DNA of 64,000 nucleotides from Escherichia phage LPEK22, in sequence record OK283619.1. One strand, written 5' to 3'. The position numbers were made by a program, and so were the translations under genes. This document shows positions 1,591-52,325 of this stretch, piece by piece (position 1 is the first letter of the stretch; every line of letters begins with the position of its first letter). A model generated the notes under the pieces. The model made no database searches. It worked only from the letters and a program-made list of their open reading frames with translations, and had not been told where the DNA came from.

Positions 1591-1598
1591 TATAAATA
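1591..1598 (+). promoter_or_regulatory. T4-type late promoter TATAAATA
   Basis: Exact TATAAATA 22 nt upstream of ATG 1621; overlaps hairpin 1596-1617. Confidence 0.6.
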
Positions 1599-1620
1599 CC
1601 CCCAAAATTGGGGGTATTTT

Positions 1621-4771: not shown

Positions 4772-4800
4772 ATACTCCATAATATTGGGGGAAATTAGTG

Positions 4801-6300
4801 ATGTCTGAGATCCAAATAGTCAAAGTGAACGAAGTTAGAATGCGGATCCTTACCGAGGATTATATCCGTGAAGAACTCAACGATTACTTCAAATTTGAAG
4901 ATCCTAATTTCCAACCGAATCCGTTCAGTAAATGGGACGGCGTAGTGCGGCTGTTCACAAAGAGTTCTGGGCTTATCGACATCGGCCTGTTATTTGAGGT
5001 GTTCAAATTCTGTAAGATGAACGGTTACACCATCAAATTAGATCCGACCTTAAAATATATTCAAGATATTCCGGATGAAGAAATTCATGCGTTCATCGAT
5101 ACATTGAATGCGGTGTACCGAGACGAAAACAAACAATATCAAAAAGCGATTGTCCGCGATTATCAATTTGATTCTGTTGCCACAGCAATACGCCAAAGCA
5201 GATGTGTCCTCGAAGCTGCCACGAGTGCTGGCAAATCCTTTATTTTGTACATCATGGCGCGTTACTACAGGCAACGCAGAGATGCCCTCGAAAGTAATCT
5301 GAGGACGTTAATTGTTGTACCATCCATTCATTTGGTGACTCAGTTGTATGACAACTTCGAAGAATATAGCCACGGGACAGAATGGAAGCCATTGATGAAC
5401 GTCCAGACAATATACGAAGGGGCAACGAAAGAGATTTTCAAACCCATAGTTATTTCAACTTGGCAAGGTATCCAGAACCAACCCAAAGAGTGGTTCCATC
5501 AATTTGGAGATATCGTCGTCGACGAAGTACATACATCAAAATCAGATAAATTGTCTTACATCTTGAACAACTGTATTAACGCTGATCAACGTTTGGGAGT
5601 AACCGGAACCCTGGCGAATACAAAGGTCGCAGGGTTACAAGTCGTTGCTCACTTTGGCGCATATCATAAAATTATTACAGCGCGCGATTTAATCGATCTA
5701 GGATATGCGGTAGACATCAATGTTAATATGATTGAAGTCATACATCCTATGGCAGACTGTATTGAAATGCACGGTGCTGAGTATCAAAAGGAAATAGAAT
5801 TCCTCATTGCTAACGAACGCCGCAATGAATTGATAGCCCGAATGGCTCTATCTTTGAAAGGGAACGTCGCAGTCATGTTCGAACGTATCGATGCACACAT
5901 GATGTTGGTTTATGAAATGCTATCGGCAGTCAAGAAAAACGTATTCGTCATCAACGGGGAAGTCAAGACAGAAGTTCGTAAACAGATTCAGGCTGCTATG
6001 GAAGAAGGGGAAGATATAACACTGTTGGCATCATATGGTACTATGCAACAGGGCGTATCTATCAAAAAACTCCATCATCTGATATTGGCCCATCCCAGCA
6101 AATCTTATATCCGTGTTATACAGACATTGGGGCGTTTGATGCGCCAGCATTCCTCTAAGGATGTTGCGCGAATCTGGGACCTGGTAGACAACCTGCGTTA
6201 CAACGGTTCCTACAACCATGCTCTCAGGCATTCTCATGAGAGATATAAATTTTATCTTATGGAGCGCCACCCTGTTAAAATGAAAAAAGTGGCGCTCTAA
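4801..6300 (+). CDS. uvsW: UvsW-like SF2 DNA/RNA helicase
   Basis: Walker A TSAGKS, DEVH box, VASYGTMQQGVS..LHHLILAH; collinear recalled similarity to T4 UvsW. Confidence 0.9.
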   Translation: MSEIQIVKVNEVRMRILTEDYIREELNDYFKFEDPNFQPNPFSKWDGVVRLFTKSSGLIDIGLLFEVFKFCKMNGYTIKLDPTLKYIQDIPDEEIHAFIDTLNAVYRDENKQYQKAIVRDYQFDSVATAIRQSRCVLEAATSAGKSFILYIMARYYRQRRDALESNLRTLIVVPSIHLVTQLYDNFEEYSHGTEWKPLMNVQTIYEGATKEIFKPIVISTWQGIQNQPKEWFHQFGDIVVDEVHTSKSDKLSYILNNCINADQRLGVTGTLANTKVAGLQVVAHFGAYHKIITARDLIDLGYAVDINVNMIEVIHPMADCIEMHGAEYQKEIEFLIANERRNELIARMALSLKGNVAVMFERIDAHMMLVYEMLSAVKKNVFVINGEVKTEVRKQIQAAMEEGEDITLLASYGTMQQGVSIKKLHHLILAHPSKSYIRVIQTLGRLMRQHSSKDVARIWDLVDNLRYNGSYNHALRHSHERYKFYLMERHPVKMKKVAL

Positions 6301-6305
6301 CCATT

Positions 6306-6671
6306 TCAAAGATCTTGGTTCACATAGGCGGGGGTTGCCTCGCCTTCTTTGTTGGAACCAAATAAACAGTCGATCGTGCCAATACATTGTTGTAGCACTT
6401 TCGGCTCAAGAATCTGAGAAAACAATTCTTCATTAGATGCCAGCAGTGGAACAACTTTCACTTCCCGCGCCTGGCCTTGTTGAATAATGCCAACATACAG
6501 ACCTTTGTTATTTGGGAGTAATGGTATCACCAACATCGGTGACACAATAAACCCCGATGTACAGAAAAGACTTTGTAAATAAACGCCTTTTAATGACGGA
6601 CGTTGTTCTGCTATGGAAAGAATTACTTCTTGGTCTTCCCCTACTGCGTATAAACCAACAAATTGCTTCAT
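6306..6671 (-). CDS. hypothetical protein (121 aa)
   Basis: Minus-strand ORF between uvsW and the gene 45 upstream region; no motif. Confidence 0.4.
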   Translation of the reverse strand: MKQFVGLYAVGEDQEVILSIAEQRPSLKGVYLQSLFCTSGFIVSPMLVIPLLPNNKGLYVGIIQQGQAREVKVVPLLASNEELFSQILEPKVLQQCIGTIDCLFGSNKEGEATPAYVNQDL

Positions 6672-7010
6672 ATATTATTTCTCACGTGTTAGCAAACTTG
6701 ACTACATAATAATGTCATGTTCTGTTTAGACCAAATAAAATATTTTAATTGTTGAATAAAAATCGCTTTCTTGTTGAACAATCCGTGCGTAATATACGAG
6801 TTGTGAGCTTTGCGAGCAACGAGTATTATCACGAGCGAAGCGAGTAGACTGATAAAGAAAGGTTTTATTAAAACAGAATATTATAAATGCCGTCAGGCAT
6901 TTATTTATCGCGCGTAGGGCAATTTATCACTTGTTCTATAACTACAAACACGCGATACTAATTTGCGTCAAATATGACTTGAACCCCACTATATTTTGAG
7001 GATACAACTA

Positions 7011-7679
7011 ATGCAAGAGATCACTCTCTCCGAACGCACTTTACAACTGCTGGCTAACTTTGAAACCATCTGCCCCTCTATCGTTCTGGCACCTGGTAAA
7101 AAGTTGCGCACTGTTAACGATTCCAGTACAGTTATCGCTATTGCCGACATTGACGAAGACTTCCCGTTCGAATTCCCGATTCTGGATCTGACCAAATTGC
7201 TGGCAATCCAGCGTCTGCCGAGTTTTAAAGGCGGTAAAATTGAAATGTCGGAAGACCACATTTTGCTGAAAGGTGAAAACTCCCAACTGCAATTCTGGCG
7301 TTCCGCTAAAGAACTGACTGTCGTTCCGGCAGACAGCATCGATCTCCCGTCTGTAGAATTTGAAGCAACAGTCACTCCTGAAAAAATGAAAGAGCTGACC
7401 CGCGCATGTTCTACTCTGGGCCACAAAACTGTACGCCTGGTTGCCAGCGGCGGTAAAACTCGTCTGGTGGGCACGACCACTACTATCGACAATTCCAACG
7501 ATTACACTGTTGAGTTGGGTGAAACAACTCTGGGTGATTTTGCTATGCCTGTTGATGTGGTCAACCTGAAAATGATCGAAGGCAACTACGTGATCCGCGC
7601 CTGTGCCGAAATGCAACTGGTTAACTTCCAATCCGCAGACGGCACCATCAACTATTACGTCGGCATGCAGCTGGATTAA
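7011..7679 (+). CDS. 45: sliding clamp (gp45-like)
   Basis: About 222 aa immediately upstream of gp44/gp62/regA as in T4; RBS GAGGA; track start is TTG, ATG chosen. Confidence 0.8.
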   Translation: MQEITLSERTLQLLANFETICPSIVLAPGKKLRTVNDSSTVIAIADIDEDFPFEFPILDLTKLLAIQRLPSFKGGKIEMSEDHILLKGENSQLQFWRSAKELTVVPADSIDLPSVEFEATVTPEKMKELTRACSTLGHKTVRLVASGGKTRLVGTTTTIDNSNDYTVELGETTLGDFAMPVDVVNLKMIEGNYVIRACAEMQLVNFQSADGTINYYVGMQLD

Positions 7680-9203: not shown

Positions 9204-9668
9204 ATGGCGCGTAATACGCTGGACATCTTAAAACTTTCAGCTGTCAACGATGAGGCCAGCATTGTTGACTGTATGGTTGAAGTTCAATTGAACCAAGACA
9301 AACCAGGGATTTTCCTGGGTATCAAGGAAACGCTGAGTCGGATAGGGGTTAACACTCGTCAAGAGCCTAACACCTTGTATCAAACGTGCCATATTCTGCA
9401 TAAATTTGGCAGATATCACATCGTGCATTTCAAGCATCTTTTCATGCTAGATGGGCACTACAACGGCTTTACGCGTGAAGATGTCCTGCGTATGAATCGG
9501 ATTATACGGCTTCTGGAGCAATGGAATATGGTTAAGATCTTGCATCCGGAACAAATAACCGAAGTGGCTGACATGTCTCGGATCAAAGTTGTAAAACATG
9601 ACCAAGTTTCTGAGTGGAAACTGGTTCCAAAATACACCATTCGCCCAAGTCGGGCAAAAAGCGAATAA
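9204..9668 (+). CDS. regA: RegA translational repressor of early genes
   Basis: KETLSRIGV...LYQTCHILHKFGRYHIVHFK...EWKLVPKYTI closely matches T4 RegA; 154 aa vs 122 aa in T4. Confidence 0.9.
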   Translation: MARNTLDILKLSAVNDEASIVDCMVEVQLNQDKPGIFLGIKETLSRIGVNTRQEPNTLYQTCHILHKFGRYHIVHFKHLFMLDGHYNGFTREDVLRMNRIIRLLEQWNMVKILHPEQITEVADMSRIKVVKHDQVSEWKLVPKYTIRPSRAKSE

Positions 9669-49748: not shown

Positions 49749-50129
49749 TCAATTTGTCCGTTTCAACCATATGGTGTCTGTTATCGGCTCTGGGTTGTTG
49801 ACCACATAGAACGTGATGGTTACGCCCAGAGAATGATAATCGTCCGACAATGATACATCAACAGATTGCAATTCAGCTCTTGGCTCAAAAAGAGCAATGG
49901 CATCTTCAACTTTGTTCTTCACGTCGACCTGTATCGTGGGATTTGTGTTTTCTCCCAACATGGTATACAACCCCGCCCCAATACTCGGATACGTCGGCCA
50001 ATCACCTACCGTCGACATTACTATATTACGCACAGATTGTAGTACAGCATAAATGCCTGTTTTCTTAGTGACATCTTTGGTGACCGGATGCATGCCAAAC
50101 TTCAGGTCAATGTCCTTGTACTCTTTCAT
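49749..50129 (-). CDS. 25: baseplate wedge protein (gp25-like)
   Basis: Collinear with T4 gp25 (DIDLKF..., conserved central block, NNPEPITDTI tail); start moved from GTG to ATG (MKEYKDIDLK). Confidence 0.8.
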   Translation of the reverse strand: MKEYKDIDLKFGMHPVTKDVTKKTGIYAVLQSVRNIVMSTVGDWPTYPSIGAGLYTMLGENTNPTIQVDVKNKVEDAIALFEPRAELQSVDVSLSDDYHSLGVTITFYVVNNPEPITDTIWLKRTN

Positions 50130-51819: not shown

Positions 51820-51840
51820 TAGTCAATTAGAATCATGTGA

Positions 51841-51848
51841 TATTTATG
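51841..51848 (-). promoter_or_regulatory. late-promoter-like CATAAATA upstream of gp5-like gene
   Basis: Minus-strand CATAAATA 21 nt upstream of ATG at 51819; one mismatch to consensus. Confidence 0.4.
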
Positions 51849-52150
51849 GCGGGGATTTGAAATCTGTCGAATAATATATTATAGGAAGCTCTGCTTCCGT
51901 TCAACCTTTATTCTTTTCGTTCCTACTCGCTGAAGCTCGTAACACCGCCTTGACAGGCAGTCCCATTCCAATGCCATGGAGGCATAAAGGCGAGGAAAAT
52001 ACTGTACACCTCAGAACATGCGTAGAAAAGGATTATTTTTGCTTCAAAACAAATTCAAACCCCAATTACACAACACTTACTTCAGCAACAACGGTGTTAT
52101 AGCAATTTAAGGTTAAACGTTCCTGTCTTAACCTATAAAACAGGTAAGCA

Positions 52151-52176
52151 AAGAAAACCCCACATTACGTGGGGTT
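52151..52176 (-). terminator. rho-independent terminator on minus strand
   Basis: Minus-strand AACCCCAC-GTAATG-TGGGGTT followed by TTCTTTG, about 150 nt after stop of gene 52326-53132. Confidence 0.5.
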
Positions 52177-52325
52177 GGAAGATTTCTTAGACAATCTAAT
52201 TTTCAGTGTCTCGGTAAGCAAATCAAGATGCCACGGCATCGATTCACTGATTTCAAATATGCTATAGCCGTGTGCCTTTAATTCGTCACACATCACAAAA
52301 TAGGAGAGTAAATCAATTTCAAAAA

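Follow-up and report, generated by a model that had tools for sequence, protein, structure and literature searches.

A conserved stem-loop cassette with tandem G·A mismatches in the divergent region upstream of the sliding-clamp gene of a Kuttervirus

The window analyzed here, a 64,000-nt stretch of Escherichia phage LPEK22 DNA, derives from a Kuttervirus of the Ackermannviridae and shares about 99% identity with phages CBA120 and PhiSH19. In front of gp45 lies a gap of 339 bp, whose limits, 6672-7010, are exact: the start codon of ORF121 ends at 6671 and the ATG of gp45 is found at 7011. Because ORF121 (6306-6671) is encoded on the minus strand and gp45 on the plus strand, the gap is divergent and not a plus-strand region, as a sequence-only reading had described it; neither is it the longest intergenic region, since gaps of 625, 506, 482 and 369 nt are present in the same window. 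It is AT-rich, with a GC content of 0.34 vs 0.45 for the window. The gp45 gene (7011-7679, plus strand) is annotated as sliding clamp in relatives and has a weak Pfam match to gp45-slide_C; Pfam matches identify gp44 (Gp44_lid) and then gp62 (Phage_clamp_A) downstream, and a RegA homolog (PF01818) is encoded at 9204-9668. The gap thus heads a T4-like 45-44-62-regA block. No tRNA or tmRNA remnant was found within the whole window.

More than 90% of the gap length can be aligned in 270 phage records, with identity down to about 74%. In an alignment of 13 sequences from four genera, 57% of the gap columns are invariant, compared with 22% of the gp45 third codon positions, used as neutral proxy, and with 18% of the columns in the gap between genes 45 and 44; conservation of the gap is strong and lies far above the neutral proxy. 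At 6786-6825 the invariant columns amount to 80-85%, and the same range is given across the two stem-loops, HP1 and HP2, discussed below. Small ORFs are annotated in the gap, one of 35 codons on the plus strand (6810-6917) and one of 30-47 codons on the minus strand (6689-6832), and hypothetical proteins have been called from them in SeKF_64 and in a few other records; that they are real micro-genes is, however, extremely improbable. Indels of 1, 3, 4 and 5 nt between genera fall within these ORFs; the 3-nt one is in-frame, while those of 1, 4 and 5 nt break the frame, which indicates that the gap is not coding. In addition, the plus-strand ORF starts with TTG and has no ribosome-binding site, and the conservation pattern is set by stem-loop arms, not by codon positions.

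The gap had been said to contain several promoter-like hexamers. A scan for the sigma70 consensus (TTGACA-N16-18-TATAAT, the second and sixth bases of the -10 element being A and T) returned 3 sites against 2.7 expected, so hexamers alone are no better than chance. In a true promoter the hexamers would be conserved and the spacer would keep its length and not its sequence; judged by this pattern, two element pairs appear promoter-like. The one on the minus strand (6706-6734), a candidate promoter for ORF121, consists of a -35 TTGGTC (6734->6729), a 17-nt spacer and a -10 TATTAT (6711->6706); TGTTTAGACCAA is invariant in the 13 sequences, as are T, A, T, A and T of the -10, only its third base being variable, and the consensus scan did not report it. 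The other, a candidate gp45-proximal promoter on the plus strand (6931-6959), has a -35 TTGTTC (6931-6936) and a -10 GATACT (6954-6959), both invariant, separated by a spacer that varies in sequence and keeps its 17-nt length in four genera; it falls under the scan threshold because it matches the consensus at just 7/12 positions. The predicted composite control region is borne out: the gap is conserved and holds several elements that look like promoters. Upstream of HP1, however, the gp45 locus shows no sigma70 promoter on the plus strand that would be convincing.

A MotA-dependent middle promoter of T4 type is characterized by (a/t)(a/t)(a/t)TGCTT(t/c)A centered at -30, 12±1 bp before TAnnnT, together with phage-encoded MotA and AsiA; in the gap, the distance between (C)TGCTTTC (about 6763-6770) and the closest TAnnnT is about 20 nt, not 12±1. 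As to the middle-promoter activator, for which a search had been proposed, ViI-like phages have neither MotA nor AsiA according to the genome paper on CBA120 (PMC3184105). Late promoters were sought as TATAAATA (T4) or as (A)CTAAATA(C/T)C, seen 30-45 nt before Kuttervirus late genes, so that CTAAATA(C/T) is probably the Kuttervirus late-promoter motif. CTAAATA[CT] is not found anywhere in the gap, which has only the T4-like TATAAATG, matching at 7/8 positions, in a hairpin arm; [CT]ATAAATG occurs 13 times in CBA120, mostly within genes. Block A (TTGGTCTAAAC) was considered as a genome-wide promoter motif and discarded, its other near-matches having no correctly spaced -10 or being terminators. 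A literature search found no published transcription-start or RNA-seq study of Ackermannviridae.

An A-box and a pyrimidine box, TTGAATAAAAAT CGCTTTCTTGTTGAAC (6752-6779, plus strand), form the 5' end of a cassette that is common to two further loci, upstream of gp5 and gp6; hereafter, locus 1 is that of gp45, locus 2 that of gp5 and locus 3 that of gp6. TAAAAA of the A-box shows no variation, not even in Erwinia Bue1 or L037, and strings of the same type head locus 2 (GCAAAAATAATCCTTTTCTACG, 52021-52041, minus strand) and locus 3 (GGTAAAAACTACTTTTCTACA). At locus 1 the hexamer TAATAT (6790-6795, plus strand) follows 16 nt past the pyrimidine box and overlaps the base of HP1; its T, A, n, T, A, T pattern is conserved in all genera and the box-N16-TAnnnT spacing is repeated at loci 2 and 3 and in Bue1. 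The hexamer is -10-like and may act as such. In CBA120, the A-box/CTTTYCW-N16-TAnnnT arrangement is essentially confined to the cassette loci, and it was rejected as a general early-promoter class.

Two strings had been taken for imperfect direct repeats. Both exist, GCGAGCAACGAG at 6812-6823 and CGAGCGAAGCGAG at 6832-6844, each once in the window, but the repeat finder gave no direct-repeat family for them: they are better seen as arms of imperfect palindromes, belonging to two stem-loops that are conserved together with their tandem G·A mismatches, and are not promoter or operator repeats. HP1 (6794-6826, plus strand) has the RNAalifold consensus ATAC-GA-GTTGT-GA-GC [TTT] GC-GA-GCAAC-GA-GTAT and is interrupted twice by tandem G·A/A·G mismatches, all of them invariant; HP2 (6831-6845, plus strand), AC-GA-GC [GAA] GC-GA-GT, has one such interruption and includes GCGAAGC. 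Both are thus short Watson-Crick helices split by invariant tandem G·A/A·G mismatches, where CGAG stands opposite CGAG. The five CGAG units within 49 nt represent the densest cluster of the window, matched in 0/300 Markov-1 simulated windows. The spacer between the two hairpins differs by 3, 4 and 5 nt among genera. In HP2, the internal loop is invariant beside a variable apex, which can be GAA, GTA, AAA, TTCA, AAC, ATA or an 18-nt extension; the arms of Aglimvirinae HP2 are ATGAGC/GCGAAT.

Pairing is kept at every variable stem position of HP1 and HP2. Among 10 distinct sequences from loci 1 and 3, Bue1 and L037 included, 99.1% of the 114 HP1 cells are paired, with compensatory changes in 4 pairs; slid registers gave only 20-57%, and none of 500 shuffles reached the observed value. 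One-sided changes are of the G·U type (U·G<->U-A, G-C<->G·U), while in HP2 the pair 6832/6844 shows a compensatory change from C-G to U-A. The compensatory changes are few and phylogenetically linked events, possibly spread between paralogs by gene conversion. The structure strings were hand-picked and the hairpins were searched by regex scans, MAFFT having mis-registered the divergent hairpins of Bue1 and L037. The mismatches are G·A on the sense strand throughout, the other strand reading C·T; the GAGC...GCGA core of HP2 occurs on the gp45-sense strand only at all Ackermannviridae-type loci, the GAGCGNAGCGA core is likewise found on the sense strand only, and a looser scan for tandem-GA hairpins gave 37 sense loci vs 7 antisense. 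The folding energy of the window copy is unremarkable (RNA z = -0.63, DNA z = +0.89), as calculated by a model that treats G·A motifs poorly, and only the sense-strand RNA of Bue1 stands out thermodynamically (z = -2.84). A long-range helix around HP1 and HP2, pairing CTTTCTT with AAGAAAG, is present in the window and was dismissed as unconserved.

Downstream of HP2, an A/T-rich spacer (6846-6881, plus strand) varies in sequence and length, with 15-20% invariant columns and indels between genera. An A/T-rich tract is present beside the CGAG units. The hairpin announced by the sequence-only reading is real: HP3 (6883-6904) is a perfect 9-bp hairpin, ATAAATGCC GTCA GGCATTTAT, with a 4-nt loop. 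The window contains 13 perfect 9-bp hairpins vs 2.2 expected, among which HP3 is unusually AT-rich; its 5' arm holds the partial late-promoter match noted above (6882-6889). HP3 is kept in Kuttervirus and Aglimvirinae, with loops of 4 and 3 nt, respectively; its sequence is not conserved in Taipeivirus, where a different AT-rich palindrome, AATAGATTAATCTATT, takes its place, nor in Bue1. At locus 2 the same place is occupied by GGAAGC AGA GCTTCC in Kuttervirus and GGCGGC TGC GCCGCC in Bue1, and at locus 3 of Bue1 by GGCGGC TCT GCCGCC. An intrinsic terminator has a G+C-rich stem followed at once by a T-run on the transcribed strand; clear terminators of the same genome, e.g. AACCCCAC..GTGGGGTTTTCTTT, are indeed GC-rich stems with T-runs. 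HP3 has 3 G-C among its 9 pairs and a terminator scan flags the minus strand only; it does not look like a canonical terminator. The CGCGCGTAG box (6909-6917, plus strand) contains an invariant CGCG; the locus 3 cassette, too, has a related CGCGCG(A)G box behind it, and so has each of the three cassettes of Bue1. Nearer to gp45, RNAalifold predicts a small hairpin in the putative leader, GTCA AATA TGAC (6967-6978, plus strand), whose sequence is invariant and thus shows no covariation. Finally, the translation-initiation region CCCCACTATATTTTGAGGATA... (6984-7010, plus strand) has 85% invariant columns and a Shine-Dalgarno GAGGA at 6998-7002; the RegA homolog may be linked to it.

Each genome carries three paralogous copies of the cassette, upstream of gp45, gp5 and gp6, each sense to the following gene. 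The two larger copies, those of gp5 and gp6, have an added module that includes a pseudoknot. The core at locus 2 (51925-51985, minus strand) comprises this module M, ATGCC TCCAT GGCAT .. GGAATGG .. CTGCCT GTCA AGGCGG, and an HP2-type hairpin, ACGAGC TTCA GCGAGT (51940->51925); it is kept in Taipeivirus, Agtrevirus, Limestonevirus and one Yersinia phage. When module M and HP2 are counted together over loci 2 and 3, all 306 cells are paired (100%), with compensatory changes in 6 of 18 pairs, against 27-53% in slid controls, and a pair in the pseudoknot helix covaries A-U<->C-G (CCAT/ATGG vs CCCT/AGGG) at both loci. Before the structured part, loci 2 and 3 have promoter-like elements, TTGATA-N18-TATTAT (10/12) and a conserved TGnTATAA(T/C), and after the small hairpin a late-type promoter (CATAAATA, GCTAAATA) of the downstream gene. 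The architecture is kept in Erwinia and Vibrio Ackermannviridae despite different helix sequences: Bue1 builds the HP1 design at loci 2 and 3 on unrelated stems, TATTTAT/ATAAATG and TTATTTC/GAAATGA, and has an identical HP2 at all three loci. The same three genes follow the cassettes from Kuttervirus to Erwinia Bue1, and the gp45 position is found also in Vibrio phages. A search of IMG/VR with the HP1 pattern returned 36 matches, two in each of 17 Ackermannviridae genomes, one in an eighteenth and one on a 6-kb fragment.

We tentatively read the gap core as a transcribed structured-RNA cassette with sigma70-like promoters for ORF121 and gp45 on its flanks, a reading that we hold as quite possible and toward which the pseudoknot, the conserved G·U pairs and the variable HP2 apex beside its invariant internal loop, all RNA-like features, point. 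Transcription of the cassette would start from the A-box / CTTTCTTG / TAnTAT elements, or from further upstream, and yield a short structured RNA; with a start about 7 nt past TAnTAT, the outer stem of HP1 would be lost, because the hexamer overlaps the HP1 base. This possible loss weighs against the reading, as do the unremarkable folding energies of the window copy, the want of a convincing sigma70 promoter before HP1, the noncanonical HP3 and the small number of linked compensatory events. A protein, or RNA polymerase, could then recognize the RNA by its G·A motifs, and the RNA, together with HP3, might gate the amount of transcription, or the transcript stability, reaching gp45, in the manner of a leader or attenuator. 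A second, proximal sigma70-like promoter, TTGTTC-N17-GATACT, would drive gp45 directly, and the opposite-strand TTGGTC-N17-TATTAT would drive ORF121.

The hairpins may instead act as single-stranded DNA, sense-strand mini-hairpins extruding from supercoiled or unwound DNA beside the A/T-rich tract and serving as origin, priming site, structure-dependent promoter or R-loop stabilizer; we consider this unlikely, though it deserves more weight than the other alternatives. The strand asymmetry is strong, HP2 is exactly GCGAAGC, and apices such as GAA, GTA, GGA, GCA, GTCA and GTTA are closed by C-G; the motif class occurs at the G4/St-1/alpha3 complementary-strand origins, at RSF1010 ssiA and, as GCGGAGC, in N4 vRNAP promoters (PMC13037366), and "CGAG blocks" made of G:C and sheared G:A pairs give stable DNA hairpins by NMR (PMC10085684). 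A near-pure A/T stretch adjoins each cluster, reaching about 60-100 nt in Vibrio VP-1 and D493; at locus 1 the HP1 stem contains a -10-like hexamer, and multiple origins would fit three copies per genome. However, the covarying pseudoknot helix of the larger copies is hard to rationalize for DNA, and wobble pairs, here G·T, are conserved; HP2 apices TTCA, AAC, ATA, AAA and the 18-nt extension violate the mini-hairpin rule, every copy points in the direction of the gene that follows, as a transcript would, and the DNA folding z-scores are unremarkable. To our knowledge, no virion RNA polymerase occurs in Ackermannviridae, and in N4 the promoter hairpin lies on the template strand.

That the cassettes are independent genes for small trans-acting ncRNAs, e.g. 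a sponge or decoy of a host or phage RNA-binding protein, and lie before gp45, gp5 and gp6 only by chance, appears improbable. It would agree with the promoter-like element before and the small hairpin after the core at loci 2 and 3, with the late-type promoters owned by the genes downstream there, with invariant G·A motifs common to three paralogs, as in multi-site sponge RNAs, and with the single HP2 sequence of the Bue1 loci; but the hairpins after the cassettes are weak as terminators, and from Kuttervirus to Erwinia Bue1 the cassettes stay in front of the same three genes, at gp45 also in Vibrio, which favors a relationship in cis. Less probable still is a duplex promoter or operator, in which CGAG repeats and palindrome would bind transcription factors and promoter classes would fire in turn. 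Invariance does exceed pairing needs, and HP1 contains face-to-face, overlapping TTGTGA-17-TATTAT (plus) and TTGCTC-17-TATATT (minus); moreover, divergent genes need promoters in the gap, as stated by the CBA120 authors (PMC3184105). Conversely, a symmetric dimer site would not hold one-strand G·A at every mismatch, the variable positions change with pairing preserved, and Bue1 has the same design on unrelated helix sequences; the plus-strand -10 is without the essential final T in Aglimvirinae and Taipeivirus (TATTTG, TATTAG), the generic promoter scan is at chance level, and MotA and AsiA are absent (PMC3184105).

A wider role can be envisaged, although we regard it as improbable: the three-copy cassette, in RNA or DNA form, could be the missing timing device of Ackermannviridae, which are without MotA, AsiA, Alt and ModA. 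As RNA, the tandem G·A would load a factor onto polymerase, or bind polymerase itself, leading to read-through into gp45, gp5 and gp6; as DNA, hairpins of the non-template strand would mark fixed starts of replication or clamp loading and thereby couple replication to late transcription. A vague "regulatory region" is resolved into defined, testable parts: two candidate sigma70-like promoters backed by their conservation pattern, and a covariation-supported cassette with unusual tandem G·A motifs that has three copies in each genome, is conserved from phages of Salmonella to those of Erwinia and Vibrio, and has no counterpart in Rfam. A functional RNA would represent a new phage RNA motif before the clamp gene and two baseplate genes; a DNA-acting element would be a candidate for a replication origin or initiation signal of this family; and a timing device would be a class of regulatory element undescribed in T4-like phages. 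These phages are widely used in the biocontrol of Salmonella, E. coli O157, Klebsiella and Dickeya, and their control elements therefore matter for engineering.

Sensitive E-value searches of loci 1-3 with the Rfam 15 covariance models, where a match should score at or near the gathering threshold, gave either nothing or unrelated matches at chance level (E 0.03-0.9), far below it. Hammerhead, pistol and other self-cleaving ribozymes were discarded, having no Rfam match and no core motifs, and the likeness of the module-M hairpin to a type I-F CRISPR repeat was judged too weak; Salmonella hosts, as far as we know, have no I-F systems. Tandem sheared G·A/A·G beside a G-C-rich helix, typically protein-binding, recalls the K-turn, but HP1 and HP2 are not K-turns, because all three G·A loops are symmetric 2x2 without a 3-nt bulge. 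An iteron-type origin, with at least 3 direct repeats of about 17-22 bp, regularly spaced, and an adjoining A/T-rich unwinding element, was also rejected: the repeat finder gave no such family, and the CGAG units are of 4 nt with spacings of 7, 9, 7, 12 and 9. In the N4 hairpin promoters, the template strand forms a stem of 5-7 bp and a purine loop of 3 nt, read by a virion-encapsidated single-subunit RNA polymerase. No vRNAP gene is annotated in CBA120, and the hairpins here are sense to the downstream gene; we know of no dedicated hairpin-reading polymerase or primase in these phages.

By rule, DNA mini-hairpins have a loop of GNA or GNNA that contains a sheared G·A pair and is closed by two G-C pairs (GCGNAGC/GCGNNAGC). 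They are extraordinarily stable as DNA and much less so as RNA, only one strand being stabilized, and are found where nucleic-acid synthesis starts (PMC13037366). HP2 (GCGAAGC) belongs to this sequence class, as do the HP1 apices GCGTTAGC (AV101), GCGTCAGC (Bue1) and GCGGAGC (L037); the apices are mostly GNA/GNNA closed by C-G, in keeping with the DNA rules, an observation that speaks against an RNA role. However, Kuttervirus HP1 (GCTTTGC), locus 2 HP2 (TTCA, AAC, ATA) and EP75 (AAA) depart from the rule; furthermore, the phage cassette conserves the internal G·A loop and not the apex, places its hairpins on the sense strand of the downstream gene and, in the larger copies, holds a covarying pseudoknot. 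The tandem sheared G·A motif is carried also by r(GGCGAGCC)2 and d(ATGAGCGAAT)2 duplexes. The "CGAG block" DNA of the human AUTS2 promoter (PMC10085684) likewise has 5'-Y-GA-R-3' opposite itself with G-C flanks; being physical-chemistry models or a human element, these cases support only the plausibility of the fold.

Among systems controlling gene expression, similar in organization are promoter-proximal antitermination or attenuation cassettes, such as HK022 put RNA, the pseudoknotted Bacillus EAR RNA and lambda PR'-6S RNA-tR'. As in those, a short structured RNA of few stem-loops would lie after a promoter-like element and before a hairpin, in few copies per genome that head gene blocks where timing matters. 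The cassette differs in having no sequence or structure similarity to them and no Rfam match, and in being defined by tandem G·A internal loops, which put and EAR are not known to contain; read-through control is here purely inferred, and the late-type promoter after the gp5 and gp6 cassettes would bypass the cassette. Antitermination in these phages was raised as a possibility by the CBA120 authors (PMC3184105).

The region of T4 gene 45 shares with the locus a syntenic 45-44-62-regA block, a RegA homolog and a conserved translation-initiation region. In T4, gene 45 is controlled by a MotA-dependent middle promoter, by other promoter classes and by a RegA translational operator; in contrast, the phage gap has no properly spaced MotA box, no MotA/AsiA and no detected sequence similarity to it, is divergent and must also serve the minus-strand ORF121, and the T4 locus is not known to have anything resembling the G·A cassette. 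T4-type phages do have mobile cassettes, the "promoter-early stem-loops" (PeSLs) reportedly described by Arbiol et al. in 2010, which are simple sigma70 promoter plus terminator units of hyperplastic regions. Like PeSLs, the G·A cassette joins a promoter-like element to a stem-loop and recurs between genes at several places in a genome; unlike them, it occupies fixed syntenic sites, is far more elaborate and is conserved across genera.

The 339-bp gap at 6672-7010 separates ORF121 (6306-6671, minus strand; 121 codons, phrog_4255, function unknown, no Pfam domain) from the gp45 sliding-clamp gene, which begins with the ATG at 7011 on the plus strand and has gp44, gp62 and a RegA homologue downstream of it; the UvsW gene (4798-6300) is convergent with ORF121. 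Since a minus-strand gene lies on one side and a plus-strand gene on the other, the gap is a putative divergent promoter region and not the plus-strand gap described by the sequence-only reading, nor is it the longest intergenic region, as a simple gene map gives the window gaps of 625, 506, 482 and 369 nt. The surrounding 1.7 kb is 99-100% identical to the Kuttervirus phages Se-E, PhiSH19, CBA120 and Det7 (Ackermannviridae). Alignments covering >90% of the 339 bp exist for 270 phage records of Kuttervirus, Agtrevirus, Limestonevirus and Taipeivirus, down to ~74% identity. Among 13 representative sequences, invariant columns amount to 57% in the gap and 80-85% in its core (6786-6845), compared with 22% at gp45 third codon positions, 18% in the 45-44 gap and 24% in ORF121. 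ORF121 stands beside the conserved hairpins in every genus examined, though its sequence is poorly conserved; in Erwinia phage Bue1 it is matched by an unannotated open frame. A terminator-like hairpin 3' of uvsW, AGGCGGGGGTTGCCTCGCCT followed by a T-run (6326-6345), falls within the 3' end of ORF121 and is the best-conserved part of this fast-evolving frame (85% invariant columns vs 24% for the whole ORF).

The direct repeats and the hairpin reported earlier are both present where they had been placed, and they are not chance features: the observation was real and even understated, while its interpretation was right only in part. Five CGAG tetramers within 49 nt (6797-6845) form the densest cluster of the window, and none of 300 simulated windows attained this density. 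The window has 13 perfect 9-bp hairpins where 2.2 are expected; the one in the gap, HP3 (6883-6904), is AT-rich, the others being GC-rich terminators. Genera differ by 3, 4 and 5 nt in the length of the stretch that separates the repeat blocks, and the first block carries a 1-nt indel, so that the small ORFs annotated here by some pipelines are not genes.

Folding of the alignment with RNAalifold converts the repeat blocks into two stem-loops on the gp45-sense strand: HP1, of 33 nt (6794-6826), ATAC-GA-GTTGT-GA-GC [TTT] GC-GA-GCAAC-GA-GTAT, and HP2 (6831-6845), AC-GA-GC [GAA] GC-GA-GT. All helix interruptions are tandem 5'-GA-3'/3'-AG-5' mismatches; CGAG opposite CGAG gives C-G, G·A, A·G and G-C, and it is because CGAG "pairs" with CGAG that the sequence reads as direct repeats. 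Variable stem positions are few and pairing is preserved at all of them, through C-G/U-A exchanges beside the HP1 apex, U·G/U-A in its middle stem, A-U/U-A and C-G/U-A in the outer stem, and C-G/U-A in HP2. In 10 distinct HP1 sequences, including Bue1 and the unclassified 159-kb phage L037, standard pairs occupy 99.1% of 114 cells, four pairs show double changes and both G·A tandems are invariant; none of 500 shuffles does as well, and pairing falls to 20-57% when the partner is slid by 1-3 columns. Read from the other strand, the mismatches turn into C·T/T·C and the wobble pairs into A·C, so only the gp45-sense strand is predicted to form the structure. In one natural isolate with an EP75-type genome (Escherichia phage, locus L118) HP2 reads ACGAGCAAAGCGAGT; its loop AAA, in place of GAA, lacks the triloop's sheared G·A, so the apex evidently tolerates change. 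The stretch immediately 5' of HP1 (6778-6796, ACAATCCGTGCGTAATATA) has a 19-nt near-identical match in the interior of a gp25-like gene (50022-50040, minus strand, ACAATCTGTGCGTAATATA; E-value ~0.02), which may be due to chance.

A scan for the same design (stem, GA, 2 bp, loop, 2 bp, GA, stem) revealed further copies. If the copy upstream of gp45 is called locus 1, locus 2, also in the window, is a 506-nt minus-strand gap that separates the baseplate-hub genes gp26 and gp5 (51820-52325, core 51925-51985), where a pseudoknotted unit, module M, is joined to an HP2-type hairpin (51940-51925, ACGAGC TTCA GCGAGT) co-oriented with gp5. This copy is kept across genera; a strong gp26 terminator (52176-52156) precedes it, and CCTATAATAT and the late-type motif CATAAATA lie between it and gp5. 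The whole CBA120 genome holds a third copy, on the sense strand of gp6, in the divergent gp6/orf218 gap outside the window (JN593240 133100-133460, minus strand; locus L101 33300-33660). This locus 3 is the fullest copy, with the HP1-like CGAGTTGTGAGTGTTAACGAACAACGAG, a 49-nt module M 96% identical to that of the gp5 locus, and an extended HP2, ACGAGC-GAGGGCGTCAGCCCCCTC-GCGAGT; a 10/12 sigma70-like promoter, TTGATA-N18-TATTAT, is found ~115 nt upstream on the same strand. Four helices were written down by hand for module M plus HP2: the hairpin GCAGCC-TCCAT-GGCTGC, a pseudoknot of its loop CC(A/C)T with A(T/G)GG of the linker GGAATGG, the hairpin CTGCCT..AGGCGG, and HP2 itself. In 17 distinct sequences, from both loci of Kuttervirus, Agtrevirus, Limestonevirus, Taipeivirus and a Yersinia phage, pairing extends to all 306 cells, and double compensatory changes are seen at 6 of 18 pairs, one of them in the pseudoknot (0/500 shuffles reach this value; slid controls give 27-53% pairing). 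The HP1 pattern has 36 matches in IMG/VR, two each in 17 Ackermannviridae-size genomes, one in another genome and one on a 6-kb fragment. The most conserved part of the gap belongs to a covariation-supported family of hairpin cassettes that is specific to Ackermannviridae and had not been described before.

In Bue1 (gp45 56% identical) HP1 and HP2 are kept upstream of gp45, and the gp5 and gp6 loci carry HP1-type hairpins with entirely different stems (TGAG-TATTTAT-GA-AC[GAA]GT-GA-ATAAATG-CGAG and TTATTTC-GA-AC[GAA]GT-GA-GAAATGA); HP2, ATCCGAGCGTAGCGAGTGAT, is identical at all three. The L037 hairpin is GTTGTTGT-GA-GC[GGA]GC-GA-ACTACAAC. Vibrio phage VP-1 (gp45 31% identical) has GGTCC[GAA]GGACC and then TGGT-GA-GC[GCA]GC-GA-ACCA upstream of gp45, and Vibrio phage D493 has GATTGC[GAA]GCAATC. 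The exact core GAGCGNAGCGA occurs on the gp45-sense strand only; it is absent from ~55 cyanophage-like gp45 loci, where a looser tandem-GA scan gave scattered matches, none resembling HP1 or HP2. Nearly pure A/T stretches lie 5' of the Vibrio hairpins, of ~110 nt in VP-1 (L018 1110-1230), itself preceded by two strong GC hairpins, and of ~60 nt in D493 (L016 1250-1310), a layout that looks like a DNA-unwinding element.

Comparison of the cassette loci gives a common order: an A-box (A/T)TAAAAA(T/C), a pyrimidine box CTTTYCW, a ~16-nt interval, a TAnnnT hexamer, the G·A hairpins with or without module M, an A-rich spacer, a small hairpin (HP3 at locus 1; GGAAGC-AGA-GCTTCC at Kuttervirus locus 2), TATA(A/G)TAT or a T-rich run, a CGCGCG box and the gene's own promoter. 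In Bue1 the small hairpin shows compensatory replacement by GGCGGC-TGC-GCCGCC (locus 2) and GGCGGC-TCT-GCCGCC (locus 3). In CBA120 the A-box/pyrimidine-box pattern hardly occurs outside the cassette loci and is therefore not a general promoter class.

The cassette could well be a transcribed, cis-acting structured RNA, the reading tentatively preferred here: the pseudoknot covaries, G·U-type pairs are conserved and one-sided changes go via G·U, the cassette is co-oriented with the downstream gene at all loci, and HP2 combines a variable apex with an invariant internal loop, as RNA helices that bind proteins usually do. It is rather unlikely that the signal is instead a hairpin of sense-strand DNA, even though HP2 is a textbook GCGAAGC mini-hairpin, a class whose RNA versions are much less stable than the DNA ones (PMC13037366), the apices are mostly C-G-closed GNA or GNNA loops, CGAG blocks have been proven to form DNA hairpins (PMC10085684) and A/T-rich tracts adjoin the clusters; moreover, at locus 1 a TAnTAT hexamer overlaps the base of HP1, and a start 7 nt downstream would leave its covarying outer stem outside the RNA. 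Folding energies do not discriminate RNA from DNA, and no transcript data were found in the searchable literature. A trans-acting small RNA is a more doubtful reading still, and a duplex operator site appears improbable.

As regards promoters, the hexamers noticed earlier are at chance level in a generic sigma70 scan (3 sites vs 2.7 expected). Requiring invariant hexamers and a fixed spacer length, with spacer sequence left free, points to candidate sigma70-like promoters for gp45, TTGTTC (6931-6936)-N17-GATACT (6954-6959), and for ORF121, TTGGTC (6734->6729)-N17-TATTAT (6711->6706). Reading by eye the 100-nt stretches that precede 27 CBA120 late genes revealed (A)CTAAATA(C/T)C ~30-45 nt 5' of many start codons, including those of gp22, gp18, gp14, the tailspike genes and gp6, and also of uvsW, with the variants CATAAATA (gp5) and TATAAATA (gp26, gp19). 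Plus-strand window sites are 4768 (uvsW), 34369, 34956, 38569, 39434 and 54176; the motif is not enriched genome-wide (19 vs 16.5 expected), yet its sites are strongly positioned and strand-biased. In several cases the motif itself is the 5' arm of a hairpin, and the 3' arm lies directly in front of the ribosome-binding site, e.g. ACTAAATACCCC...GGGGTATTT (window 1591-1620; CBA120 tailspike upstream regions 124081, 126074, 129288 and 141335); such a hairpin would fold in read-through RNA but not in transcripts begun at the late promoter. HP3 (TATAAATGCC..GGCATTTAT) is arranged likewise.

The motif appears to be the Kuttervirus equivalent of the T4 late promoter TATAAATA; according to the 2011 CBA120 paper (PMC3184105), such an equivalent had not been identified. 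The motif is absent from the gp45 gap, where only TATAAATG (6882-6889) is found, in the 5' arm of HP3. The gap also contains no MotA-type middle promoter, and as for the middle-promoter activator to be sought, the CBA120 genome paper reports neither MotA nor AsiA (PMC3184105). Of the T4-like composite control expected by the sequence-only reading, the composite nature stands and the likeness to T4 does not, the regulatory role of the cassette being putative. The RegA translational-repressor homologue (PF01818, 9204-9668) follows gp62 as in T4; the gp43 DNA polymerase gene, adjacent to regA in T4, is instead ~55 kb away in CBA120.
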